Below are positions 8,697 through 62,543 of a DNA stretch of 62,748 nt, piece after piece. The position numbers and the translations under genes are program-made. Below the pieces are notes generated by a model. The model was not told where the DNA came from. It worked only from the letters and a program-made list of their open reading frames with translations, and made no database searches. Source of the DNA: Minisyncoccia bacterium. GTDB lineage: Bacteria; Patescibacteriota; Minisyncoccia; Phycocordibacterales; UBA9973. Position 1 is the stretch's first letter. Each line of letters opens with the position of its first letter. The stretch is from contig JBAQFO010000003.1 in the NCBI GenBank assembly GCA_049287305.1, forward strand, positions 1-62,748, given 5' to 3'.

Positions 8697-9281
8697 TTAT
8701 TTTATCTCCCGCATTTCTTCCAAGTTTTCCAAAATATTTTTCAAATCATCCGCGAGTGGCGACTCTGTCCATTTCCGAAGCAGTGCTCTGGCGACATTTG
8801 AATAATTCTCCAATGTTTTTTCTTTCTTCGCGTTAAATCTGTCAAAAGTTTTGTCCCCCGTTGTTTGATAATCAAGATATATTTCGGTCACGTTGGAAAC
8901 AACATCCGCTGATTTTAGAAGCACGGAGTCATTTGAAAAATGTTCTATGTGGGCGAGAGCCTGCGCTTTCCTGTCTTCCCACGGAGCATCCTTTTCTTCT
9001 TCGGTCACACTTAAAACGAGTTCCATTATATTTTCCCCGAACTTTTCTTTTATTATTTCCTTGGTAATTTTCTTTTCCTCGGCGCTGTCTTCTATCGTAT
9101 CGTGGAGAATCCCGGCGATAACCACGTCTTCATCCCCGCCAGCCTTGGCGATAATCATCCCTACCGACAAAGGATGAACAATGTAAGGAATATCCTTACC
9201 CTTTCTTTTTTGTTTCTTGTCGGTCTCGTGAGCTTGAATAGCCAAGTTTATAGCCTCTTCTACCCTTTTGGTATATATCAT
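8697..9281 (-). CDS. HD-domain phosphohydrolase (RelA/SpoT-type hydrolase-like)
   Basis: HPLSVG...AGILHDTIED HD motif. Confidence 0.75.
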   Translation of the reverse strand: MIYTKRVEEAINLAIQAHETDKKQKRKGKDIPYIVHPLSVGMIIAKAGGDEDVVIAGILHDTIEDSAEEKKITKEIIKEKFGENIMELVLSVTEEEKDAPWEDRKAQALAHIEHFSNDSVLLKSADVVSNVTEIYLDYQTTGDKTFDRFNAKKEKTLENYSNVARALLRKWTESPLADDLKNILENLEEMREIK

Positions 9282-9365: not shown

Positions 9366-9392
9366 ATATCCACTTTAGTTAAGTAAAGTAGC
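9366..9392. repeat. Hairpin palindrome family, degenerate copy A
   Basis: ATCCACTTTA-GTTAAG-TAAAGT. Only the inner 6-bp arms pair. Confidence 0.5.
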
Positions 9393-9451
9393 TGGGAATA
9401 AATAATTCGCTTGGGATAATGGTTAAGTTAGGGCTGTTTTGTTTTAGTTGT

Positions 9452-9814
9452 TTAAAACCAAATTTCTATAAATACTTTTATGTCGGTTCCATCGTAAAGA
9501 TTCTCCTGGAACCTGATTTCCTTTTTTAGCGGCAGGATGTATGTCGCCGAATGCCTGTCAGGAAAAACGGAAGTTGTCCATTCGCTTTTTCCTATTTTTG
9601 CCTTGGCGTAGACCGCGCCCCAGCCCCGCCTGAGTCTTCCTGCTTGCATTTCTTTTATTTTGACGGAAATGTTCTCAGGCACCCGCGCAAAACGCCAAGC
9701 CCCCTTGTCTTCTCCGTCTCTGTATCCCTCCTTCCAGACTATAACTTTGCTTTTAAATTTAAAGGTCTTCTTCTCCGCACCATTGCCTGTTCTTTTCTTA
9801 ACTGGTTTCATCAA
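9452..9814 (-). CDS. DUF1905 domain protein
   Basis: GAWRFARVPENIS...GWGAVYAKAKIGKSEWTTSVFP pattern. Confidence 0.65.
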   Translation of the reverse strand: MMKPVKKRTGNGAEKKTFKFKSKVIVWKEGYRDGEDKGAWRFARVPENISVKIKEMQAGRLRRGWGAVYAKAKIGKSEWTTSVFPDRHSATYILPLKKEIRFQENLYDGTDIKVFIEIWF

Positions 9815-9842
9815 AATAATTTACCTCCACAATGTTTTTATT

Positions 9843-10145
9843 TTATGCCGCCTGCGCTTCTGCCTCATTTTTATTTACTTCCTTCCTTTTCAATATTTTA
9901 ACAATAAGCTTTGCGGCTTCTTCGAGTTGACCCGACATTATCAAATCATGAATATTTTTATTTTTAGGGTCATCTATCATTGCGCTGACAGTTTTAAACC
10001 GCGCCATAGTTTTTGCAAGCCATGCGTCATCTTTTTCATGTGCATCCCCTTCCCCTAGCAACTCCGCAACACGAAATTGTATGAGATTTCTGTCTTCAAG
10101 TGCGATTCTTCCAATATTGTCTGAAGGTCCTGTTTCGTGGCTCAT
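9843..10145 (-). CDS. Hypothetical protein
   Basis: 100-aa ORF. The minus strand carries TTGACA, a 19-nt spacer and TGGTATAAT just upstream (10152-10182), so the mRNA may be nearly leaderless. Confidence 0.5.
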   Translation of the reverse strand: MSHETGPSDNIGRIALEDRNLIQFRVAELLGEGDAHEKDDAWLAKTMARFKTVSAMIDDPKNKNIHDLIMSGQLEEAAKLIVKILKRKEVNKNEAEAQAA

Positions 10146-10243
10146 TTATTTATTATACCATGGCTTTTACCAAGCCTGTCAATATTCTCATATATTACAT
10201 AGTTTTCCCAAAACCTTTACCTTCCCCTTAATCAAGCTCTCAC

Positions 10244-10273
10244 CTATCCACTTTACTTAACTAAAGTGGATAG
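10244..10273. repeat. Hairpin palindrome family, copy B (perfect)
   Basis: CTATCCACTTTA-CTTAAC-TAAAGTGGATAG, with 12-bp perfect arms. Confidence 0.85.
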
Positions 10274-10369
10274 GGGGAAAAGTTGTAATGGTGAGGGTTG
10301 TGTTAGTGATGGTTGTGGTAGTTAGAGTTATGATACTTGTGATTGTTAAAGTTGAGGTTAGATGGGTAG

Positions 10370-10624
10370 TTACTTGTTTTTATTATTTTTTATTAAAACC
10401 AATTTCTGGGCTCGGGTGAGGGCTTTGATGCGGGCTTCTTCGGTTGAGGCCTTGGACCTATTTTTAAATCTTTTGGAAAAGACGATCTTAACAGGTCGGC
10501 GGGAATTGGTATATTTTGCGCCCAGCTTGGAGCTGTTGTGTTCCACCAACCTCCGCTTTAAATCGGTAGTAATCCCGGTGTATAAAGTCTTATCCGCGCA
10601 TTTTAAAATATATAAATAATACAT
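10370..10624 (-). CDS. GIY-YIG nuclease family protein (UPF0213-like)
   Basis: YYLYILKCADKTLYTGITTDLKRRLVEHN. Confidence 0.8.
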   Translation of the reverse strand: MYYLYILKCADKTLYTGITTDLKRRLVEHNSSKLGAKYTNSRRPVKIVFSKRFKNRSKASTEEARIKALTRAQKLVLIKNNKNK

Positions 10625-10626
10625 GA

Positions 10627-11124
10627 TTACCGTATGCCTGTGTCACAAGACATTTCTGTTTTTGTATACTTTCCGCTTTTCACTTCTACTGTTAGCTCGT
10701 TACATCTCGGGAAAATACCTTCATTTTCTGCACGCAAAATATATGAGCCCGGAACCAAGTCTACACTAAATTCGCCCCTGGCGTCGCTTTCTATTGTTTT
10801 TATTATTTTTGTATCACCTTCTTTAATGATGTTAATAGAGGTTGAGTAAGGCCTAGGCTCACAGCCTGGCTCCTGAGGTATGCGTTCTACCGGACAAGTC
10901 GGGCTAGTGGTAACTATTCCGGTGACACCGCTTTTGGCATCGGTTTTGGGTGGGTTTTCTTTTTCGTCCTGCGGCTCCGGCACGACATACGACACTTCCG
11001 TATATTTGTCTGGTGAATTTAATATTATATAGTTAACGACTCTTGCTACCCAAAATTTTTGCGTAAAGATTAAGCCGAGTCCAGCTATGATTAAAATCAG
11101 TAGCGCTATACGAATTGTTTTCAT
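10627..11124 (-). CDS. Secreted protein with carboxypeptidase-regulatory-like beta domain
   Basis: N-terminal transmembrane/signal segment. DARGEFSVDLVPGSYILRAE is a CarboxypepD_reg-type strand pattern. Confidence 0.45.
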   Translation of the reverse strand: MKTIRIALLILIIAGLGLIFTQKFWVARVVNYIILNSPDKYTEVSYVVPEPQDEKENPPKTDAKSGVTGIVTTSPTCPVERIPQEPGCEPRPYSTSINIIKEGDTKIIKTIESDARGEFSVDLVPGSYILRAENEGIFPRCNELTVEVKSGKYTKTEMSCDTGIR

Positions 11125-11210
11125 CCTTTCATTATACTACTTCTGTTTTAAAAAATAACCCGAACCAAAAGGATGTTGTTGATTGAGCGATAATTTGATA
11201 CGCTGGAAAC

Positions 11211-11480
11211 ATGAAAGAAATACTGGGAGGAAAAATTTCACAAAATATAGCTCAGAATTCGGGCACGAGAAATTTAGAAAACTTTAACCGCTATGCTAGA
11301 AATATTCGACTTGGCACCACCTGCACTGTCCGGGATATAGAGTTGGCGTTTAACGTAAACTGGGGACCCGCGCTTGAAGAGAAGCTGAAAAAGCGGTTCG
11401 AATATACCCGCGACGGAGAAGACAATTTTGTTTTCACTAAAGATAATGGGCCACAAAAATCCGGAAAGCCAAGGGAATAA
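11211..11480 (+). CDS. Hypothetical protein
   Basis: 89-aa ORF that is the only plus-strand ORF locally. No motif was recognised. Confidence 0.4.
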   Translation: MKEILGGKISQNIAQNSGTRNLENFNRYARNIRLGTTCTVRDIELAFNVNWGPALEEKLKKRFEYTRDGEDNFVFTKDNGPQKSGKPRE

Positions 11481-12311
11481 CTAGGGGCAGTTGAGGGCTT
11501 TGCGCCAGCCGGCGTTGAGGGCTTCGGTTTCGGAGCAGAACATTTTTTCTCCTTTGCTTTCGTCTATCACCGTCTTCGAATATGACCCGCAGCCTTCCAC
11601 GTGATAAATCTTCTCCCCGCTTGAGCTGATGTTCCCTTTTATGTTGCAGGAAGAGCCGGATGACGAGGTGGAAGTTGTTGATGCTGGTGGAGTTGTTGTT
11701 GTGGAAGAAGTCGTGGAAGAATCTTTCGTCGGACAGGCGCTCCACAGTCCCCGCTTGGCGCTTTCCGCTTCTTGTTGAGCTTTCAAAATTTGTGCCTGTC
11801 GTGATATATCTGGCGGATAGGAATATGAATACGCGAATCCTTGCTTGACCATTTCCACGTTTATAAAGCTATCACCTATGTAAATATAACGAAGAAGTCT
11901 GCCATATCTGTCTTTGTCGGTAACATCTTTCTCCATTCGCACCACCTTCCCTTCCACAAGTTCTTTATTTTTCTTGGAAGCCTCGGCGCCGAAACATTGC
12001 ACGGGTTTGCGCGGAGACACGGTCTCGGGGGTATCTATGCCTATGTATCGCACTTTCTGCCCGCCTTCAATCTCCACCGTGTCTCCGTCTATTACTCTGA
12101 CTACCTTTGCTGTTTCAAATTTTAAATCGCTTGTTCCTGTCGTTTCGCCTGCCACGGGAACCGCAGGATCAGCTAGCGTCTCCACGCTTTCTCTGGCGAC
12201 AAAAGGTGCTTCCACTATATCCGTTTTTGCCACGTCCTCGGAGCCTCCTATGCTTATCCCAATCAAAAGCATCAAAAACCCGAACAGAACCCATTTGGTA
12301 AGTTTTGTCAT
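11481..12311 (-). CDS. Thermonuclease (SNase) family protein with a C-terminal cysteine-containing domain
   Basis: VVRVIDGDTVEI...VRYIGIDTPE SNase motifs. An S/T-rich linker precedes CNIKGNISSSGEKIYHVEGC...FCSETEALNAGWRK (sunset-like domain). Confidence 0.8.
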   Translation of the reverse strand: MTKLTKWVLFGFLMLLIGISIGGSEDVAKTDIVEAPFVARESVETLADPAVPVAGETTGTSDLKFETAKVVRVIDGDTVEIEGGQKVRYIGIDTPETVSPRKPVQCFGAEASKKNKELVEGKVVRMEKDVTDKDRYGRLLRYIYIGDSFINVEMVKQGFAYSYSYPPDISRQAQILKAQQEAESAKRGLWSACPTKDSSTTSSTTTTPPASTTSTSSSGSSCNIKGNISSSGEKIYHVEGCGSYSKTVIDESKGEKMFCSETEALNAGWRKALNCP

Positions 12312-12387
12312 TACTCCGTATTATAAAACTTTAGGTCACACTTGACCATCTTGGTTTATTACTCTTTGGCTGAGTTTGCTTGAATTA

Positions 12388-13584
12388 TTATTTACTCAAT
12401 ACGTTCCACACCGCAGGGTCTTCTTCACCATCTATTTTAAATATGGCCACGCCCTTGAGCCCGAGCTCTTGCGCTAGTTTTACTTTATCTTCTATTGCTT
12501 TAGAATCGCTCCATCTTATGAAATTGAAAGTTGTGGTTTGGCCCGTCTTGTTGGCATAGGCTAGAGCCTTTTGAGCTATCATGTCGCCCTCCGAAGTCCC
12601 CGCAGGCACGGTGAGTCCAGGTAGTGCAGCGATAAGAGCATTCCTCTCCGCGGTGCCATTTACGGGCAAGTAAGAAAAGCTAAGCTCCCCGGCTTTGTCC
12701 CGAAGCGGAGTGATGTCATAGGTCGCGGCCACATCCGTGGCATAAACATGATTTAAGGATTGAACCTTTTTATAATCCTTGAACCTGTTGGGTGAAACGG
12801 TCACTATATATTCTTGTCCGTAAGTAGCCACGCCGAGCATAATCTTTTTCTTCGGAATATCTTTCATGGCAAGCTCCGCCACTTTTCGGACCCAGTCTTT
12901 GTCGGCTACGGGAATATATGGAGACCCGGCTTTGGCGTCATTTAATTTTATGTCCGCCCGCCCTTGGTCATAGGCCATGATTTCCACTTCATCGCAATGT
13001 TTACCTATGGCTTTGAAGTCATTCGCGTATTGGATATCTGTCGGCACTACCCTATACAAAGAGTCGGGCGGGGTTCGCGCTTCTATGGCGCAAGAGAGAA
13101 TTTTGTTCTTACCCAATTCTTTTTTCAGTTCTTTCAAGAAAGTAGCAAAATCACTTTTGGTTTCGGCAAGCTTCGCCTCATAGTCTATATTCACGCCATC
13201 AAACTTTTCTTTCTTTACCATGTCCATTATGGCCTTGATATGCTTCTTGCGGAGAGTTTTATCGCTTAGGATGCGCTCAATGTCGGCTCCCTGTGACCAC
13301 ATGACCGTGGGCAATATATCCACATCTTTCTTTCTAGCCAGTTTAAAAAGGTTCTGCCAAGCGGTCTTCGCTGTTTTATCTGTCGCGTTTTTGCTTACTT
13401 TAGCCAAATCGTTCAGTGTCCCGTCTGCTTTTACCGAATATCCGAAAGGATGAAGAGTGTCGAGTGTGTCCAAATGATTCTCCGCATCTTTTGCCCCAGC
13501 GACAATAGTCCAATAAGGAATCCAGCCGGAAATTTCAAGTTCCTTGGAATTGTTTGTCTCAGCCGCCAGCGCCCACCCAAGCAA
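12388..13584 (-). CDS. Glycoside hydrolase family 18 protein (chitinase/YaaH-like)
   Basis: FDGVNIDYE catalytic motif. The ORF opens at a TTG only 8 codons before an ALA|AE-like site and overlaps the 3' end of the DUF262 gene. Confidence 0.75.
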   Translation of the reverse strand: MLGWALAAETNNSKELEISGWIPYWTIVAGAKDAENHLDTLDTLHPFGYSVKADGTLNDLAKVSKNATDKTAKTAWQNLFKLARKKDVDILPTVMWSQGADIERILSDKTLRKKHIKAIMDMVKKEKFDGVNIDYEAKLAETKSDFATFLKELKKELGKNKILSCAIEARTPPDSLYRVVPTDIQYANDFKAIGKHCDEVEIMAYDQGRADIKLNDAKAGSPYIPVADKDWVRKVAELAMKDIPKKKIMLGVATYGQEYIVTVSPNRFKDYKKVQSLNHVYATDVAATYDITPLRDKAGELSFSYLPVNGTAERNALIAALPGLTVPAGTSEGDMIAQKALAYANKTGQTTTFNFIRWSDSKAIEDKVKLAQELGLKGVAIFKIDGEEDPAVWNVLSK

Positions 13585-14263
13585 TTACATTTTGGAAATA
13601 TTTCCATAATTCTTCGGCACTCGCGTCATGTTGATGCTTAGCCATGTAATCTTCTATTTTTCCGTCGTTGATCCACGAAAGCGCTGCTTCTAAGTAATCT
13701 TGACGAATCACGGACCCAGTTAAGTAATCACTTCCTATGTTATAAGCTGGGCAATTAGATTTACTAAAATGCCTTTTTGCATCAGTAAGCCACTCTCCTG
13801 TGTAAATAGCATTCCGGAGCTCTTGATCTGCAAGCTTTAATCCCGCAATATTTATAGTTTTAAACCAGTCCAATTTTTCTTTGTCATCACCCTCACAAAA
13901 ATACACCATTAATTTATAATTAAGAATTTGGTTTTTTTCAGTTTCCTCAAGATTGTGAAAATACTGAAAATTAAGTGAGAAATTACCTGCCACATATTCA
14001 CAAATACTTATAGTTCTCTGTTGCCCATCCATTACTTCAAAAGTGCCATCTTCATTTTTAGCCCAATACATTACATTTAACGGAAAATTTTTTCTAGTAG
14101 TTTCAATAACTGCATCTCTTTGCTTATCTTTGTAAACGAATTCACGCTGATATTTTGGACGAATATTCAATCTTCCCCCATAGCCAACAACCCCTTCTTC
14201 GTTGTTGTTTATATATTTATTTGAAATTTCTTTAATTGTAATTTCTTTTAGTTGTATTTTCAT
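13559..14263 (-). CDS. DUF262 (ParB/GmrSD N-terminal-like) domain protein with no DUF1524/HNH half
   Basis: MDGQQRT motif and IRPKYQREFVY N-terminal motif. 234 aa. Confidence 0.75.
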   Translation of the reverse strand: MKIQLKEITIKEISNKYINNNEEGVVGYGGRLNIRPKYQREFVYKDKQRDAVIETTRKNFPLNVMYWAKNEDGTFEVMDGQQRTISICEYVAGNFSLNFQYFHNLEETEKNQILNYKLMVYFCEGDDKEKLDWFKTINIAGLKLADQELRNAIYTGEWLTDAKRHFSKSNCPAYNIGSDYLTGSVIRQDYLEAALSWINDGKIEDYMAKHQHDASAEELWKYFQNVIAWVGAGG

Positions 14264-14273
14264 TAGTTATTTT

Positions 14274-15257
14274 CTATATTCTCTTATTTTTAATAACAAC
14301 TCTAACATAACAAGGCTTTCCTTTGATTTGCGCTAAATACTTCCCCCTTGTTTCATTAGTTGGTCCAGACAAAATACTATAACGATTAAGTCCGTCTAAA
14401 ATTTCAAATTGATCAGGACTATACTTATCTAAAAATGTAATTGGGACACCAATCGCTTCTTTGTAGTCCATGGGGATATCCTTTGTTTTATCAACATTTA
14501 TAGCATCAAAGTGGTCATATTTAAGATATTCGTTCTCGTGCCCATAATACTTTCTATAAAGAATTAAATCGTCGTGGCGTTCCTTGTAATCTAGATTAGT
14601 AAACCAGCGAACACCGTTAACTCTTACGTATTGGTCACCTTTTTCATCTATTCTTTTACTAGGAGAATGCACAATATAATGTAAAGGTACTCTGAATTCT
14701 CTATCCCCGCTATGTATACTTTGCCCCAACCAAATTTTATTATCTTTTATTAGTTTAAAAATTTCTTTATAGGTAATAGCATTTTGGTTCCCAATAATTA
14801 TAAATTTCTTATTGTATTCAAATAGTTGCGCTACATACTCTCTAAATAAAGAGAAGGGAGGATTGGTAACAACTATGTCTGCCTCTTTTAAGATTTCCAC
14901 ACACTCAGGACTCCTAAAATCACCATTTTGTTTTAGGGGAGTCTTGACTGTATCTAATTTGTTTATCTTCCCATCTTTATTCATATCTTTCGTAATCTCT
15001 AATTTATATGATGGCTTTTCTGTTTCATAATGTGTAGAGATTAACTTTTTTAATCCAAGGTGTTCAAAGTTATCGGCAAAATATTTCCAAAAATGACTTT
15101 CCTCTGGGTCATCGCAATTACAAAATATAACTTTATTTTTCAGGTGGTTTTTGTAGTTCTTTAATTCTTTTTCAATATCAGAGAGTTGTGTGTAAAACTC
15201 GTCATTCTTGGCGGCGTCTGCTTTGCGTAAATTTTTATTTGATGATCTGTTGGCCAT
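14274..15257 (-). CDS. N6-adenine DNA methyltransferase, EcoRI-methylase family
   Basis: DEFYTQLSDIEKEL near the N-terminus and the IVVTNPPFS catalytic motif. The ATG at 15257 overlaps the upstream stop (TAATG). Confidence 0.8.
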   Translation of the reverse strand: MANRSSNKNLRKADAAKNDEFYTQLSDIEKELKNYKNHLKNKVIFCNCDDPEESHFWKYFADNFEHLGLKKLISTHYETEKPSYKLEITKDMNKDGKINKLDTVKTPLKQNGDFRSPECVEILKEADIVVTNPPFSLFREYVAQLFEYNKKFIIIGNQNAITYKEIFKLIKDNKIWLGQSIHSGDREFRVPLHYIVHSPSKRIDEKGDQYVRVNGVRWFTNLDYKERHDDLILYRKYYGHENEYLKYDHFDAINVDKTKDIPMDYKEAIGVPITFLDKYSPDQFEILDGLNRYSILSGPTNETRGKYLAQIKGKPCYVRVVIKNKRI

Positions 15258-15433
15258 TATTTCTTCCAATCCTTAACAACTAAAGTTTTGCCTTTGGAAG
15301 ATACGACGACCTTTTGCCCTTCCCTCCATTTGAACTTGCGGACTAAATCTATCGGCAACGTAACAGCAAGTGAAGCTTTGCCTACTTTTGTTATCTTTCT
15401 TATATTTGTTTGTCCGATTTTGCGGGTAGGCAT
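15257..15433 (-). CDS. AbrB/MazE/SpoVT-family DNA-binding protein, 58 aa (not in the ORF track)
   Basis: My own minus-strand translation is MPTRKIGQTNIRKITKVGKASLAVTLPIDLVRKFKWREGQKVVVSSKGKTLVVKDWKK. It shows the classic swapped-hairpin motif (VGKASLAVTLP...GQKVVV). Confidence 0.7.
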   Translation of the reverse strand: MPTRKIGQTNIRKITKVGKASLAVTLPIDLVRKFKWREGQKVVVSSKGKTLVVKDWKK

Positions 15434-15439
15434 GTAAGT

Positions 15440-15459
15440 AATGTATTACGTACATTCTA
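15440..15459 (-). promoter_or_regulatory. Inverted repeat overlapping the -10 box of the AbrB-methylase operon (candidate operator)
   Basis: AATGTA (15440-15445), 5 nt, then TACATT (15451-15456). The minus-strand -10 box TAGAAT lies at 15459-15454. Confidence 0.4.
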
Positions 15460-15508
15460 TCCCTAAAAGAACCAAAAAACAAACCCTTTTTATACAACAC
15501 ATCCAACT

Positions 15509-15536
15509 TTGATAGGAGCAGAAATTAGTGTACAAT
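15509..15536 (+). promoter_or_regulatory. Promoter of the second methyltransferase
   Basis: TTGATA (15509-15514), a 16-nt spacer, then TACAAT (15531-15536), 25 nt before the ATG at 15562. Confidence 0.55.
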
Positions 15537-15561
15537 ATGGGCAGGAAGTCAAAAATCTCAG

Positions 15562-16707
15562 ATGAAAAAGCAAACCACCAAAAGCAAACAAGAAATTTTA
15601 GGGCAATATTTCACGAAAACTGAAGTGGTAGACAAGCTGCTTAACATTCTTTTTACCTATAAAAAATATAGTAAGAAATCTTCGCTTCTGGAACCTTCTT
15701 TCGGAACAGGTAATTTTATTAAAAACCTCAAAAAAAGAGGCTTCCAGAACATAGAGGGATATGAAATTGACCCAGAGCTAACGAAGGACCCGGTGGACTT
15801 TTTCACTGTGCCGACCAAGCACAAGTTTGATTTAATAGTTGGCAATCCCCCTTTCACCAAATATAACCTTGAGGAAAGCTACTATCACGCTTCCCAATAC
15901 CTCTTATCCGAAGTGAGCCCCTTGGACTATCTGAGTTCAAAAGATATAAAAAGCGACAAGCAAAAAATCGAGAACGCTTTCCTATTAAAATCCCTGAAGC
16001 ATCTGAAAAATGACGAATCCAGCATTGCGTTCATTCTCCCCGTTTCTTTTTTCATCAAAAACAAAAACAAAGACCTGAAAGAAAAGCTACTAACCAAATT
16101 TTCAACTATTATCATTTACCAAAACGACCAAGTCTGGTTCGATAGAAACATTCCTTGCTGTTTTGCTATTTTTTCCAACATTAAAAGCTTTAAAAATAAA
16201 ATTGTCGTCCTTTACGAAAACGGAAACAAGGGCGAAGACATTTTTGATATTTCCAACATTCACGAAGAGCTCATCCCCCAGGTAATCTTTAACAAAAATC
16301 ACGGACTTATCAATAACGAAAGAGGAGTCCCTTTACGGGAATATCTAGCGGAAAAGAATATTAAGGCCAAGAAATCATTTAGCCACAACAGCGTTTCGGC
16401 TAAAAATATCCTAGCCATGAGCAAAATCCCAAAGGAATCCAATATTTCCGATTACAAAATGGCCGTAGTGAGGGTGGGTAACTCAAGCGTCGGAAAATGC
16501 GGACTGGTAAACATAAAAGAAGACGTGTTGAACGACATGTTTTACGTTTTTGATTTTAAAGCAGAATATAATCAGAATAAAAGGCTGAAAGAAGAAATCT
16601 GCAAGAGCATAAACAAGAACATAGATTATTTCAAAAATATCACTTGCCGAGTAGGCAGTAAATCCATAAAGAAAGAAAACGTATACGACTTCAGGGTGGA
16701 AATCTAG
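15562..16707 (+). CDS. N6-adenine DNA methyltransferase, gamma class (TaqI/Eco57I-like)
   Basis: Motif I LEPSFGTGNF precedes motif IV VGNPPFTKY. The C-terminal ~180 aa would be the target-recognition domain. Confidence 0.8.
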   Translation: MKKQTTKSKQEILGQYFTKTEVVDKLLNILFTYKKYSKKSSLLEPSFGTGNFIKNLKKRGFQNIEGYEIDPELTKDPVDFFTVPTKHKFDLIVGNPPFTKYNLEESYYHASQYLLSEVSPLDYLSSKDIKSDKQKIENAFLLKSLKHLKNDESSIAFILPVSFFIKNKNKDLKEKLLTKFSTIIIYQNDQVWFDRNIPCCFAIFSNIKSFKNKIVVLYENGNKGEDIFDISNIHEELIPQVIFNKNHGLINNERGVPLREYLAEKNIKAKKSFSHNSVSAKNILAMSKIPKESNISDYKMAVVRVGNSSVGKCGLVNIKEDVLNDMFYVFDFKAEYNQNKRLKEEICKSINKNIDYFKNITCRVGSKSIKKENVYDFRVEI

Positions 16708-16717
16708 CTTTTTATTG

Positions 16718-17389
16718 CTAGCTTAGTAATAAAATCAAATCATCCCTGTGGTCTACCGACGAGCATGCGAGGGCTTTGGCAATTTCTATGATTGTGTGAC
16801 TTGAAGGTGCCCAATGACATTTTGCTCCCGAACCCAAAGGGGTATTGGTTTGAATATTATTGGCTACGTTTCTCAATGCTATGTTGGGGTTATTAACGCC
16901 AATCAGCACAAACATGTGCGCTGCCAAAGTAAAATCCCCAATTTTAAATGTAATTTTTACCTGGAGATTTGGATCTATGTTCTTTTCGAAAGAGTAGAAA
17001 ATTTCTTCATATTTGAAAACGGCGAAATCGTCTACTCTTTGTTCCAGCTCCTCTTTTTGCGCTTTCCTGCTGTAAAATTCGGAGTCTTTGAGCGAAGTTT
17101 TTATTTCGCTTAATTCTTTTTTGAGCTCAACTATTTCTTCCGGGGTAAGTTTTTGAGTTATCAGCTGAGACAGCTCGGCGTTCGTAATCATCCACTCTAT
17201 ATAGTGAGTGCTGAAATCAATGTTTTGAGAAGAAGGTTTAGAAATATGATTCCCGTGATTATCACAGATTCTGACACTACTGCGAGCAGAGGTTAGCTTC
17301 AGGTCCACTTCCCCGTTTGATATGGAAACCGTGGGAAATTTATTTAGTAAAAGTTCTTGAACCATGTTTAATATTTTGATTTGACTCAT
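16718..17389 (-). CDS. Hypothetical protein, a positional candidate for the cognate restriction endonuclease
   Basis: 223 aa, convergent with and 10 nt from the methyltransferase stop. A central coiled-coil-like segment is present. No nuclease motif was recognised. Confidence 0.5.
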   Translation of the reverse strand: MSQIKILNMVQELLLNKFPTVSISNGEVDLKLTSARSSVRICDNHGNHISKPSSQNIDFSTHYIEWMITNAELSQLITQKLTPEEIVELKKELSEIKTSLKDSEFYSRKAQKEELEQRVDDFAVFKYEEIFYSFEKNIDPNLQVKITFKIGDFTLAAHMFVLIGVNNPNIALRNVANNIQTNTPLGSGAKCHWAPSSHTIIEIAKALACSSVDHRDDLILLLS

Positions 17390-17464
17390 AATTTTACCAC
17401 CTTACTTCACCTGAACCCCAAACTCAATCACCCCTCCTTCACTCTCTTCTGCTTCACCACCCAG

Positions 17465-17484
17465 CCACTTTAGTTTAGTAAAGT
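17465..17484. repeat. Hairpin palindrome family, degenerate copy C
   Basis: CCACTTTA-GTTTAG-TAAAGT. The inner 6-bp arms pair. Confidence 0.5.
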
Positions 17485-17499
17485 AATTATTTAAAAAAA

Positions 17500-17817
17500 T
17501 TATTCCTTTATTATCTCAAACGTGAGTCTCTGGGCGTCAGGATGAATTGGCATTTTTAAGGCTTCCATTACATGGTCAGCGGGAAGTAGTCTATTTCTTG
17601 CACTGTCTGTACTGCTTATTCTGGGAGGCATCTCATATAAAATGGATCCGCCTAACTGAATGACCCCTTCATTGAACGGATTTTCCGTATCGGGAATGAC
17701 GATCGCTGGTCCGTTGACGCGGTCATCATTCCATTTCACTTGTCCAATTTTCGAAGAACCGCCCGGGAAGTGAACTCGAACGCGTATGTCGGCTCCTGGC
17801 CCAGCATTACCTACCAA
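17500..17817 (-). CDS. Hypothetical protein (TTG start)
   Basis: 105 aa. GGAG lies 7 nt upstream of the TTG. TTGAGT, a 17-nt spacer and TAGAAT lie on the minus strand at ~17918-17946. Confidence 0.5.
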   Translation of the reverse strand: MVGNAGPGADIRVRVHFPGGSSKIGQVKWNDDRVNGPAIVIPDTENPFNEGVIQLGGSILYEMPPRISSTDSARNRLLPADHVMEALKMPIHPDAQRLTFEIIKE

Positions 17818-17948
17818 CTCGATGCTCCAATCCGCTGGGGTTCCCCTCTTTGCGAATCCGGTGTTTTTATTTTCATGTCTATAGTTATAATTTATTAATA
17901 TTTTGGCTTAACTTTTTTATTCTACCCCAACCAACCTTCTAACTCAAT

Positions 17949-18809
17949 CTACGCTGTCTTGCTTTCGATTTTGGTAAGCCCAGAGAGCACTTCTCCGAAC
18001 GACTTAAGCTTCACGAGAAGCGGGATAGCTTGATTAGCCTGTGCAACTTCTTTGAGTTCTTTCTGCTGGTCCACCAGGGAGGCAAGCAATTTGCGGAATA
18101 TTTTGTCTTTTTTACCCATATCATTTTCCGAAAGTCCCTGATTGAGCTCATCCAGTTCCGATTCCTCCAACCCTAAATAAAACACAGGAATATTTTCCAA
18201 ATGCGCCCGCTTTAACTTCTTTTTCTTGAATCCCAACCCATAACGTATCTCTGCTCCCCCTTTTTTAGCTATCTTAAGAATTTTTTCCTTTTTTTCTTCG
18301 GCGCGGGTGCTACCGTGGACTTCATCAAATGCTCCGACAACTTCTCCTGTGGCTCTGTTTACTATCAAGTTGTCCACCCCATTTTCATAATCGTCATAAG
18401 GCGCCGTTCGCACCACCAAGAAATCTTTCCCCAGCATTTGAGAAAGGAGCACGGTCACCGCCATCTCCATCTGTCCGCTTTTCTGGCGGGATTTGCCTTC
18501 CTGCCATTTCCGAATCATGTCGTTTTCATTTTCTACCCCAGGTTGGCCTCTGTAAAATTCCGAAAACTTAACTTCAGTTTTTCGGACCACCTCTGCATCC
18601 GCCGCAAGTTCGCTTTCATTATATACATCTTTGTATCCACTTGGGTCTAGGGCTCCGTCAGAAGTAAGCAAGCCCTCCAGGCCCGATTCTTTTAACCTTG
18701 CATTTATTTCATCGGACTGGGCCCGAAGCATCTCCATAAGCATCTCGGTTGGATGCTTTTTCTTTTCTATCGTTGGCTTTATTCCCGATTGCGGTTCAAA
18801 CTGGTTCAT
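17949..18809 (-). CDS. Hypothetical protein
   Basis: 286 aa, charged and cytoplasmic-looking. No domain was recognised. Confidence 0.55.
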   Translation of the reverse strand: MNQFEPQSGIKPTIEKKKHPTEMLMEMLRAQSDEINARLKESGLEGLLTSDGALDPSGYKDVYNESELAADAEVVRKTEVKFSEFYRGQPGVENENDMIRKWQEGKSRQKSGQMEMAVTVLLSQMLGKDFLVVRTAPYDDYENGVDNLIVNRATGEVVGAFDEVHGSTRAEEKKEKILKIAKKGGAEIRYGLGFKKKKLKRAHLENIPVFYLGLEESELDELNQGLSENDMGKKDKIFRKLLASLVDQQKELKEVAQANQAIPLLVKLKSFGEVLSGLTKIESKTA

Positions 18810-18892
18810 AAAATATTCGTTAGAATTATAGGCTTATGATACTCCCCGCGGAGAATTAATCAACTAGTGCCCCAATCCCAAACTCAATATAA

Positions 18893-18930
18893 AAAAGAAA
18901 ACCGCCTCGGGGGGGTGCGCGAGGCGTTTC
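18893..18930 (-). terminator. Intrinsic terminator of 18950-19339
   Basis: The minus strand reads AAACGCCTCG-loop-CGAGGCGGTTT followed by TCTTTTTT. Confidence 0.65.
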
Positions 18931-18949
18931 CCTTTTGAAGCGGTGATAA

Positions 18950-19339
18950 CTAATGGAGCATCTTGGAGGATACCCCGAGGAGCAGCGTGGCGAGAAGAGC
19001 GTAGAACGTCCCCTTGGCCGCGAGCCAATGCCCGAGAGGCAGGAAGAGCGACGTGGTCTTCATCTGGTTCGACTGGTGGAGCTTCCACCCTAGGAAGCCT
19101 GTAGCGAACAGACAGAGGAAGAAGATTCCTCCGACCACGAGATGTGTGATATACAGAGCGCTGAAACTTTCCTGTTGCGCCCCGCGGATGGCCACGAGGA
19201 CCATCAGCACCACTCCCCAGAACATCGCGATGACTCCCCCCGCCCGATGTCGCCGGCCTCCAAGCTCCGGCACATACATCTGATGCAGAAGCACCAGAAG
19301 AACAACCCCCGAGACCACCCGAAGTCCGATGTCTACCAT
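18950..19339 (-). CDS. Four-TM membrane protein of unknown function (GC-rich cassette 2)
   Basis: 129 aa with four hydrophobic spans. Line 19141-19200 is 57% GC by hand count. Confidence 0.55.
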   Translation of the reverse strand: MVDIGLRVVSGVVLLVLLHQMYVPELGGRRHRAGGVIAMFWGVVLMVLVAIRGAQQESFSALYITHLVVGGIFFLCLFATGFLGWKLHQSNQMKTTSLFLPLGHWLAAKGTFYALLATLLLGVSSKMLH

Positions 19340-19421
19340 AGGCGCACTCTGTCCTTTCGTAAAAAGTTGATGGAAAAAGCTAAACCGAGTTCACCTTACC
19401 ACACTTCATCACAAAATCAAC

Positions 19422-19453
19422 TTACTCCACTTTACTTAACTAAAGTGGAGTAA
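19422..19453. repeat. Hairpin palindrome family, copy D (perfect)
   Basis: TTACTCCACTTTA-CTTAAC-TAAAGTGGAGTAA, with 13-bp perfect arms. Confidence 0.85.
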
Positions 19454-19505
19454 AAAAACAATCACTATTTTCCAACAAGACTACTGCGAAGACTATTACG
19501 TAAAT

Positions 19506-19757
19506 TTATTTATCCTCTATTAAAAGAAGCTTGGAAGGATGGCGATGCCCATTCACAATTCTGACATTGGAAACTGGAGTCGAAAAATACTCCGCTACTA
19601 GCTCCACGACTCGGGTATTGGCCATATTCCGTTCCGCTTTCTGCCGCACAGCCACGTCAAAATGGTCTTCGGACTCTTGCCCGGATGCCTTAGAGCGGAC
19701 GGGTTTTATCCACTCCTTCCTTGCCCCAGCTGTTACTTTCACGTGAATATATCCCAT
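19506..19757 (-). CDS. DUF167 (YggU-like) protein
   Basis: IHVKVTAGARKE...ANTRVVELVAEYFSTPVSNVRIVNGHRHPSKLLLI. Confidence 0.7.
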   Translation of the reverse strand: MGYIHVKVTAGARKEWIKPVRSKASGQESEDHFDVAVRQKAERNMANTRVVELVAEYFSTPVSNVRIVNGHRHPSKLLLIEDK

Positions 19758-19903
19758 TTGTTTATTCCTTGTTTTTCCGCCCCCTTATTCTACACCCACC
19801 CCGCCCAACTTCCACACCACCTTGCCTTTCTCCATCTTCTATTTTTTATCTTCCACCCCCACTCTTTTTTCTTTATCTTTCTCCACTTACACCACCCCCC
19901 TCG

Positions 19904-19933
19904 CTTTCCACTTTATTTAACTAAAGTGGAAAG
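19904..19933. repeat. Hairpin palindrome family, copy E (perfect)
   Basis: CTTTCCACTTTA-TTTAAC-TAAAGTGGAAAG, with 12-bp perfect arms. Confidence 0.85.
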
Positions 19934-19995
19934 TAACGAATGATTAGTTGAGTCACCATATGGAATGATTCCACCATATGGGATTATTCATTGTT

Positions 19996-33401: not shown

Positions 33402-33422
33402 AACTTGCAATAAGTATATACT
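33395..33422 (+). promoter_or_regulatory. Strong sigma70-type promoter for the DUF4430 operon
   Basis: TTGACA (33395-33400), a 16-nt spacer, then TATACT (33417-33422). This implies a ~230-nt 5' UTR. Confidence 0.6.
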
Positions 33423-33429
33423 AAAAGAG

Positions 33430-33661
33430 TTCTTCTTAAAAATTTAGAGAAGTGATTGGGGAAACTGGTGACCTGCCTCGCGCTCATGCGCGAGTCAAGG
33501 CGGGAATTCCAGTACAGTGCCGCTACGGTAAGCCCTGCGTTTAATCGCAAGGACAAGTCCGACTACCAATCATTTAATGTTTAGTCCCGAGCAGGATAAT
33601 CCTTCATCATTGTATTTTGAAGGCCCCACAATTCTGCTCCAAAGGCGGATTTTTTTATTTT
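33430..33661 (+). promoter_or_regulatory. Structured 5' leader, a candidate riboswitch (cobalamin-like motifs, unconfirmed)
   Basis: Nested stems are TGATTGG (33453-33459)/CCAATCA (33566-33572), ACTGG (33464)/CCAGT (33509), CCTGCC (33472)/GGCGGG (33499) and the hairpin TCGCGC-TCAT-GCGCGA. GGGAA and CCGCTACGGTAA (33520-33531) resemble the cobalamin riboswitch core. Confidence 0.4.
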
Positions 33662-52794: not shown

Positions 52795-52952
52795 CGCTTT
52801 TTTATTATGTTGATAATATGTATGTTTAGATATTTAATCTAATTTTAATATTATACAGGAATAGAAAAAGGAGTCAATAAAAAAACCCATATAAAATGGG
52901 ATAAAATGTGGATAACCTGTTTATAACTTTAATATAAACTTAATATTACTAA

Positions 52953-62512: not shown

Positions 62513-62543
62513 ACAACCACTGTCAAACTTTAAAAGTGGTTGT
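62513..62543. repeat. Hairpin palindrome upstream of the HNH gene, possibly a distant member of the CCACT...AGTGG family
   Basis: ACAACCACT-N13-AGTGGTTGT. Confidence 0.4.

Follow-up and report, generated by a model that had tools for sequence, protein, structure and literature searches.

The window analysed here is the whole of contig C3, 62,748 nucleotides from the genome of a Minisyncoccia bacterium (830 kb, 14 contigs, 99% complete), and the element under study is a family of short intergenic palindromes, referred to below as boxes. Five of them lie in the spacers of a string of minus-strand genes within an accessory/defence region, the products of which include HD_4 and DUF1905 proteins, a GIY-YIG mini-gene, SNase, GH18, GmrSD_N, two DNA methyltransferases, DUF167 and a GSDH-like protein. 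Searching the window for CCACTTTA-N6-TAAAGTGG with up to three mismatches gave five matches, starting at 9370, 10248, 17465, 19427 and 19908, against 0.42 ± 0.67 expected from 100 shuffled windows, none of which reached five. Three copies are perfect (cores 10248-10269, 19427-19448 and 19908-19929), and two are degenerate, with one mismatch (9370-9391) or two (17465-17486). An earlier reading of the same letters, the original prediction, had described this family, and the copies were found where it had placed them.

Copy A (9366-9392; core ACTTTAGTTAAGTAAAGT at 9372-9389) scored 36.0 against a position weight matrix (PWM). One of its arms is degenerate, with GTAG for GTGG, a mismatch that is G.U-compatible on the minus (sense) strand; the DUF1905 stop codon lies 60 nt before it and the start of the HD_4 gene 91 nt beyond. 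Copy B (10243-10274; CCTATCCACTTTA-CTTAAC-TAAAGTGGATAGG; core 10250-10267; PWM 37.8) has perfect 13-bp arms and lies about 97 nt past the stop of the GIY-YIG gene. In copy C (17465-17486; core 17467-17484; PWM 28.9) the loop is GTTTAG and pairing is limited to 6-bp arms plus two G.U-compatible positions on the minus strand; the stop of a 105-aa open reading frame (ORF) is 16 nt before it, and the start of a 223-aa gene 78 nt beyond. Copy D (19422-19453; core 19429-19446; PWM 37.8), again with perfect 13-bp arms, sits between the DUF167 gene (stop 19506) and a 129-aa gene with four transmembrane segments (start 19339). Copy E (19904-19933; core 19910-19927; loop TTTAAC; PWM 34.5) has perfect 12-bp arms, and the DUF167 start is 147 nt downstream. 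As RNA, copies B, D and E fold at -22.1, -18.1 and -18.5 kcal/mol respectively, with z-scores from -5.2 (B) to -5.8 (D), while the two degenerate copies were unremarkable in folding.

Scanning the genome with the PWM detected 11 copies with the core ACTTTA-[C/G]TTAA[C/G]-TAAAGT. Besides the five in the window these are C11:33791, C12:90343 and C14:64367, 91296, 91352 and 101101, so that the genome-wide search that had been proposed did find copies elsewhere (6 of 11). Their scores range from 26.7 to 37.8 and the next best site scored 14.1, which marks the boxes as a discrete family. With about 93% of the genome coding, all 11 lie between genes, as had been claimed for the copies in the window. 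At 62513-62543, in a segment that had been regarded as a looser relative, the arms measure 8 bp and the loop 13 nt, and the PWM score stays under 14; with this different geometry the segment is not a member.

The copies, of the form tCCACTTTA-N6-TAAAGTGGa, match the 20-bp consensus cacTTTA-N6-TAAAgtg. For Firmicutes, Actinobacteria and Synergistetes, a common operator consensus of HisR (YerC), a regulator of the TrpR family, has been given as cacTTTAnnnnnnTAAAgtg (Ashniev et al. 2022, PMC9413887). In vitro validation used R. gnavus HisR, the binding of which needs histidine, the co-repressor in Firmicutes; hisR is autoregulated in 183 genomes, with a site upstream of itself in about half of the genomes studied, and the TrpR motif, TGTAcTnGTnnACnAgTACA, is distinct (PMC9413887). 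The original prediction had taken the palindromes to indicate a hairpin rather than a fixed protein half-site. Their inner 8 bp and 6-bp spacer are those of the published HisR/YerC operator, and the exclusion of a half-site is also countered by the tandem motif on the promoter of the cognate regulator in many genomes.

The predicted regulator gene lies outside the window at C14:90918-91286 on the minus strand. It encodes 122 aa that match PF01371 (Trp_repressor) at 2.7e-19, and the closest solved relatives by sequence are 3FRW, 3G1C (E. eligens HisR) and 3KOR, all of the YerC/HisR branch, with a conserved recognition helix (GLSSTTIAR vs GASTATISR). Two copies of the box and a degenerate third occupy the space between this gene and a divergent neighbour, the nearest ending 10 nt before the ATG, and the gene closes with a canonical terminator (GC-rich hairpin and U-run) and is not bracketed by boxes. 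The genome has one more gene of the TrpR family (C14:81305-81556), immediately downstream of a trpS-like gene; by sequence it most resembles E. coli TrpR, and no box was found upstream of it. The arrangement of a trpS-like and a TrpR-family gene recurs in several relatives (loci in G013, G018 and G006; G-numbers denote sampled relatives, G000 being the genome of the window).

Relatives were sampled as 41 genomes from the genus and 251 from the order. In the genus sample the 18-mer, allowing one mismatch, was present in 11 of the 41 genomes, and the reversed motif, as a control, gave one hit. Orthologues of the regulator (E < 1e-30) occur in G000, G002, G013, G015, G020 and G027, and the motif was found in all six, as against 5 of the 35 genomes without an orthologue (Fisher p = 1e-4). 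In the order-wide scan single hits were at noise level, while the multi-copy genomes (G000 with 8 hits, G027 with 6, G270 with 12, G166 with 3 and G130 with 2) all carry an orthologue with adjoining boxes, as do G051 and G289. Congeners and family-mates without the gene (G199, G102, G145, G228, G053 and G241) had 0-1 hits, indicating that gene and boxes are gained and lost together.

In all 11 genomes examined the boxes adjoin the regulator gene, and in ten they lie directly upstream of it, mostly as two to three abutting copies. Within the genus sample this was seen in the six genomes with an orthologue, with an 18-bp period, as in the tandem pair ACTTTACTTGACTAAAGT|ACTTTAGTTTGCTAAAGTagccgtATG of G013. 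Beyond the genus, boxes are directly upstream in G130, G166 and G051 and, in tandem, in G289; the gene of G270 has two boxes just downstream and one degenerate box upstream. From the sequences, a promoter is embedded in these boxes: the -35 element, TTGACT or more generally TTGAyT, is the centre of box 1, the spacer is 17 bp, and the -10 element TAAAGT is the right arm of box 2. The boxes overlap the -35 and -10 of the regulator in several genomes, and in several the ATG follows the -10 box by 6-10 nt, which implies a leaderless or near-leaderless mRNA. Such placement at a regulator's own promoter is the classic mark of autoregulation, here predicted from sequence. The same spacing of -10 box, 6-10 nt and ATG recurs at a 100-aa gene of the window (10145-10182, minus) and at the promoters of HisR-like genes (L027-L031); leaderless mRNAs are possibly common in this genome.

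These data suggest that the core palindrome is very probably the binding site of the protein encoded at C14:90918-91286, and it is likely that the palindromes as a family are operators for a homodimeric repressor of the HisR/YerC type, an ordinary kind of gene switch. The helix-turn-helix of each repressor monomer would read one (c)cACTTTA half-site, with the 6-bp centre as a spacer, and the regulator would repress its own gene through the two to three abutting boxes that cover its promoter. As in the published system, the protein belongs to the PF01371 branch with a similar recognition helix, the operator consensus is the same, and a site lies on the regulator's own promoter. Unlike that system, the host belongs to Patescibacteria (the Candidate Phyla Radiation, CPR), hisD and histidine genes beside the boxes are lacking, 11 sites are present in 830 kb with five clustered in an accessory island, and many solo sites have extra outer arms of 11-16 bp that covary, and lie next to long tracts rich in G and free of C. 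The regulator probably works like HisR, as the same protein and motif family, and its physiological role here probably differs. No literature linking HisR to Patescibacteria was found, the phylum being outside the coverage of PMC9413887; the system is thus of a known kind, in a phylum for which no report of it was found.

The E. coli TrpR system (trp, aroH and trpR operators) is comparable in the fold family, in a palindromic operator bound by dimers with tandem abutting binding, in the overlap of operator and promoter, and in autoregulation by the repressor. It differs in operator sequence and half-site spacing, and the TrpR-like paralogue of the present genome is the separate, box-less gene on C14 described above.

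Through the five boxes of the window, small minus-strand genes would be wired into the regulon. The candidate target of copy A, at 8697-9281, is an HD_4 protein (PF13328 at 3.1e-16) with the HDTIEDS signature of (p)ppGpp hydrolases, with about 95 bp from box centre to start codon; a target of this type would fit a regulon that responds to amino acids. Between copies B and A lies a candidate pair (9452-10145) consisting of a 100-aa gene without assigned family (9843-10145), about 113 bp from the centre of B, and the DUF1905 gene (9452-9814). Copy C precedes, at about 86 bp, a 223-aa protein without a Pfam match (16718-17389). The fourth candidate unit (18950-19757) comprises DUF167 (19506-19757; about 161 bp from E) and the 129-aa membrane protein (18950-19339; about 98 bp from D). 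A canonical terminator, GC-rich hairpin and U-run, follows the 129-aa gene at about 18893-18930 and closes this unit, and the pair therefore looks like a single one, box E preceding it and box D lying within. Copies D and E, and likewise A and B, had earlier been seen as bracketing genes in the manner of cassettes; they are better read as operators at the head of, or inside, small operons.

At these sites two arrangements may be envisaged. The boxes would either be promoter-operator modules, in which the TAAAGT arm is the -10 box and transcripts start with G-rich leaders, or distal, roadblock or looping operators 86-161 bp upstream of start codons. DUF167 is the sole target in the window for which the sequences of relatives offer comparative support. 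In G014, where the GSDH-DUF167 neighbourhood is the same, tandem boxes precede the start codon of its orthologue by 42 nt and come after a canonical terminator, and their TAAAGT arm is well placed as a -10 box. Among DUF167 orthologues in 28 genomes of the genus, a good box lies within about 250 nt upstream only in G000 and G014; the G001 locus has one about 700 nt from the gene. Recurring members of the regulon are limited to autoregulation, a site in the glyA-tmk neighbourhood (four relatives) and DUF167 (G000 and G014). Just upstream of box E on the minus strand, window 19954-19990 contains two CACCATATGG motifs, their starts 18 nt apart, around a GGAAT-G-ATTCC inverted repeat; this pair may be the site of a second regulator for the DUF167 unit.

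Several observations weigh against an assignment of the boxes as HisR-type operators. The genome has no hisD, and no recognisable histidine gene stands beside any box, with the limit that transporters were not searched exhaustively; flanking genes encode HD_4, DUF1905, DUF167, APH, zinc-ribbon solenoid paralogues and others of no assigned function. The boxes of the window miss the clearest sigma-70-like promoters: the 100-aa gene has a strong promoter of its own (TTGACA-19-TGgTATAAT-6-ATG; -35 at 10182-10177 and -10 at 10157-10152, minus), the -35 of which is 67 nt downstream of box B. When a sigma-70-type -35 was sought 17 bp upstream of the TAAAGT arm in solo sites, a decent one was present only at copy C (TTTAAA-17-TAAAGT, minus strand, a possible promoter), so that a promoter role of the solo boxes is only putative. 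Moreover, G005, G007, G009, G014 and G018 have 1-3 boxes with no orthologue detected, of which G007 is 100% and G018 99% complete. The copies at C14:101101 and G027:C1:14074 are flanked by convergent genes, a setting in which a promoter operator is hard to justify. Finally, covariation of the outer arms is not predicted by a homodimer contacting about 20 bp, and by a hand count the mismatches at positions 7-8 in co-directional contexts were G.U-compatible on the sense strand at 7 sites vs 1, an excess that a transcription-linked C-to-T bias could mimic.

Two further observations concern boxes of this kind. In G007, with no detectable HisR-branch orthologue, three good boxes are located at C3:54765, 62223 and 62635 (L017, L024), two of them in a 412-bp tandem duplication; they may be orphans left after loss of the regulator, or may be bound by another protein. 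At C11:33791, C14:101101 and in G009 (L011), the box follows a stop codon by 3 nt; the proteins that end there are paralogues of about 560 aa, cysteine-rich and zinc-ribbon-capped, with NKEVY as their last residues, and the box may have been duplicated together with these paralogues.

In length and in perfection of symmetry, some copies exceed what the protein requires. In the window the outer arms of B, D and E bring the stems to 13, 13 and 12 bp, and these arms and those of C14:101101 all differ from one another and are all complementary. Compensatory pairs outside the window include CTAC/GTAG and TAG/CTA at C14:101101 and ATAC/GTAT at C11:33791, and stems reach 16 bp in G027:C1:14074 and G270:C3:48337; solo copies of this genome and of two other lineages have copy-specific, complementary, covarying outer arms of 11-16 bp. 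The chance of three or more of nine solo copies having at least three extra pairs was 4e-4. The sequence of the outer arms can also be lineage-specific, as (CC)GTTCC...GGAAC(GG) in G027, and GCTnC...GnAGC in G270 with all four base pairs at n.

For statistics on the outer arms, 36 solo copies from 13 genomes and 17 tandem or regulator-proximal copies were used, with stem positions counted outward from the loop. The paired fractions at positions 7 to 12 were 0.72, 0.56, 0.69, 0.69, 0.56 and 0.44 in solo copies, and 0.65, 0.12, 0.29, 0.24, 0.06 and 0.41 in the others. The covariation score of the solo copies was 0.245, compared with 0.145 ± 0.018 after shuffling (reached by 0 of 500 shuffles) and 0.08-0.14 in slid controls; cells changed on both sides numbered 61, compared with 37.8 ± 6.4 (0 of 500). 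The significance of the covariation is overstated, since the shuffles ignore relatedness and copies within one genome share outer sequence.

The claim that the outer arms differ between copies and stay complementary was therefore upheld in the window and beyond, and the compensatory pattern extends past the three perfect copies on which it had been based. The conclusion drawn from it, selection for or copying of a hairpin, fares less well: the covariation is real, and a selected hairpin is not favoured. The sole demonstrably old solo site, in the glyA-tmk neighbourhood of G005, G013, G015 and G018, has stems of only 3-7 bp, and the long-stem copies are species-specific. This old site without arms, together with canonical terminators in the same gene string, favours a recent fold-back origin over a selected hairpin. 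Ripley-type template switching at quasipalindromes would perfect a palindrome and extend it with copy-specific complementary sequence, as in the young solo sites; it is a mutational process and not a functional system, and is invoked here by inference only. The outer arms, which would not be needed for binding, have about an even chance of being a by-product of the birth or extension of a site, by fold-back or template switching seeded by the operator palindrome. A selected second function as hairpin or roadblock is possible and distinctly less probable, and some other explanation is given a lower weight again. Most likely the arms would mark young sites, which later decay to the selected core. 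Contigs from NCBI and Logan with the same proteins were 99.97-100% identical to the window and showed no empty site, and because these strain-level contigs are identical, no filled-versus-empty pair was seen. Flanks that are complementary and look compensatory are not in themselves evidence of an RNA structure or of a hairpin that moves; in the present family the part conserved is a protein half-site, and the flanks may simply reflect the youth of the site.

A more elaborate version of the HisR-type operator is doubtful, and would have the box dual-purpose and self-renewing in Patescibacteria. New copies would arise by fold-back from the hairpin of the operator itself, as long and perfect palindromes, and would wire newly acquired accessory genes into an amino-acid-sensing regulon, and while young they would also act as RNA or DNA hairpins or as protein roadblocks that, with the adjoining G-rich, C-free tracts, mark the boundaries of transcription units. 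If true, such a box would be a transcription-factor site with the population dynamics of a repeat element.

An alternative that is improbable takes the palindromes as mainly RNA or single-stranded DNA hairpins (U-less terminators, attenuators, processing or stabilising stem-loops, or unit insulators), with the likeness to a HisR box as secondary. It would account for the strong folding of the three perfect copies and for the covarying outer stems, with positions 7-12 paired in 44-72% of solo copies compared with 6-41% of tandem copies (65% only at position 7), and for mismatches that are mostly G.U-compatible on the sense strand. Every solo copy is also downstream of a stop codon, two long-stem copies lie between convergent genes, and copy D was the top-scoring terminator-like site. 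In addition, no match to Rho (PF07497) was found in the genome, so that hairpins must do the terminating. This task is, however, performed by canonical terminators of GC-rich hairpin and U-run, one of them behind the 129-aa gene of the same string and another behind the regulator gene, and in G014 one precedes the boxes. The stems of the palindromes are A/T-rich rather than GC-rich, and four of the five window copies have no U-run; copy D alone has a partial one after the stem on the minus strand (UUGAUUUUGU). The earlier opinion that these are not standard terminators was thus correct, while the absence of a flanking U-run, on which it rested, holds for four copies and fails in part for D. 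Conservation resides in the loop-proximal sequence and not in pairing, the old solo site has no extended stem, and abutting tandem boxes on the regulator's promoter would be inexplicable as terminators. Rfam, searched with the whole window under gathering thresholds and with 9.0-20.3 kb under a limit of E <= 1, gave no RNA family at the palindromes.

Another explanation is very improbable, namely that the boxes represent a small repeat, mobile or generating copies, comparable to repetitive extragenic palindromes with their transposase (REP/RAYT), a miniature inverted-repeat transposable element (MITE) or attC, which spreads in the accessory genome and happens to carry or mimic the operator. 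The resemblance lies in short intergenic palindromes, some bracketing single genes, that are concentrated in a variable region: a 10.6-kb part of the accessory/defence island contains five of the 11 copies, and those of the window are species-specific. Copy number jumps in single species (G000 11, G270 12, G027 6), and the lineage-specific outer consensus in G027 and G270 suggests a copied unit longer than the protein site. These jumps, however, coincide exactly with presence of the regulator gene, and within the present genome the outer arms differ among copies, leaving no shared unit of more than about 24 bp. REP/RAYT families have tens to hundreds of copies, often clustered as bacterial interspersed mosaic elements (BIMEs), compared with which 11 copies are few, and a search for the Y1 transposase (PF01797) gave no match in the genome while control genomes were detected. 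In integrons every cassette downstream of intI carries at its 3' end an attC site, an imperfect inverted repeat of 57-141 bp (R''-L''/L'-R') that has extrahelical bases; the boxes are perfect palindromes of 30-32 bp with a 6-nt loop and no bulges or extrahelical bases (intI was not searched for), their core is a transcription-factor half-site, and no target-site duplications were seen. The REP/RAYT-like or attC-like behaviour that the original prediction had entertained is accordingly not borne out. With strain-level contigs identical, no filled-versus-empty site speaks for mobility, and given the jumps, the clustering and the lineage-specific outer consensus, a 'mobile operator' flavour retains a small probability.

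That the AAAGTGG arms are MraZ boxes, and the palindromes bound by MraZ instead of a TrpR-family protein, is scarcely credible: MraZ boxes of Mollicutes are AAAGTG[T/G], and the mraZ promoter (C8, about 8989-9087) carries AAGTGGG direct repeats in a C-poor tract that resemble the AAAGTGG arm, but MraZ binds direct repeats at about 10-bp spacing rather than inverted ones around a 6-bp spacer, across genomes the boxes follow the HisR-like gene and not mraZ, the motif is largely absent from MraZ-encoding relatives without the HisR-like gene, and boxes at the regulator's promoter often end in AAAGTA.

A HisR-type switch would be of interest for the biology of the organism, which cannot make histidine. 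Transcriptional regulation in Patescibacteria is almost unexplored, and the predicted regulator-operator pair with its 11-site regulon is directly testable. The candidate targets, among them the (p)ppGpp-hydrolase-type HD protein, DUF167, DUF1905, an APH-type kinase and others, may be switched by amino-acid supply in a host-dependent, ultra-small bacterium.

Tracts that are G-rich and nearly free of C, defined as stretches of at least 70 nt in which G occurs 20 times or more and C twice at most (or the complementary composition), are rare, with 18 in the genome, and four of the longest flank window boxes B (on both sides), C and E. At the window boxes the G-rich strand is in every case the one that leads away from the box. 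The G/T-rich tract at 10275-10384 (plus) has 25 G and no C in the 60 nt from 4 nt beyond the core of copy B, and on the other side a G-rich, C-poor tract (10179-10242, minus) runs into the promoter of the 100-aa gene. Over the same distance the tract from copy C to the ATG of the 223-aa gene (17379-17463, minus) has 29 G and 2 C, and that from copy E to the DUF167 start (19780-19903, minus) has 27 G and 1 C. The feature was also found at C12:90343 and in the intergenic region of the regulator. Across all collected boxes the outward GC skew averaged +0.16, with 51 of 78 flanks positive, and it is thus not universal. If the TAAAGT arm is a -10 box, the tracts would be 5' leaders.

Other functions considered for these tracts were rejected. 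As C-rich tracts leading toward the palindromes they might be rut sites for Rho-dependent termination, a reading discarded because the genome has no Rho match. For GGA-rich leaders as CsrA targets, tblastn with E. coli CsrA found nothing, and translation of the C-rich and G-rich tracts gave no consistent ORF or run of His codons that would point to leader peptides. The 84-aa GIY-YIG mini-gene (window 10370-10624) adjoins box B, and the C-free tract at 10275-10384 starts right after its stop.

About 60 nt downstream of the box and G-rich tract on C12, and before small zinc-ribbon ORFs, lies a perfect 30-bp palindrome, TACGTAATGTATTACGTAATACATTACGTA (C12:90420-90449; L004:1580-1609), a candidate operator for another regulator. 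The DnaA-box-like 9-mer TTATCCACA occurs 24 times in the genome compared with about 9 expected, for example at C14:91344 in the promoter of the regulator gene, at C8:8981 in the mraZ promoter and at window positions 52907, 48852 and 23102, in several cases 37-41 nt upstream of a TATAAT-like -10 box. It is also conserved in G000, G013 and G027 at a place about 20 nt upstream of the HisR-like gene's operator array, where G020 has TTATCCCCA, and it may be a lineage-wide promoter-upstream element or reflect DnaA as a regulator. Elsewhere in the window, the 5' part of a 16S rRNA gene lies at the contig start (1-428, minus strand), and a cobalamin riboswitch was detected at 33409-33588 on the plus strand.

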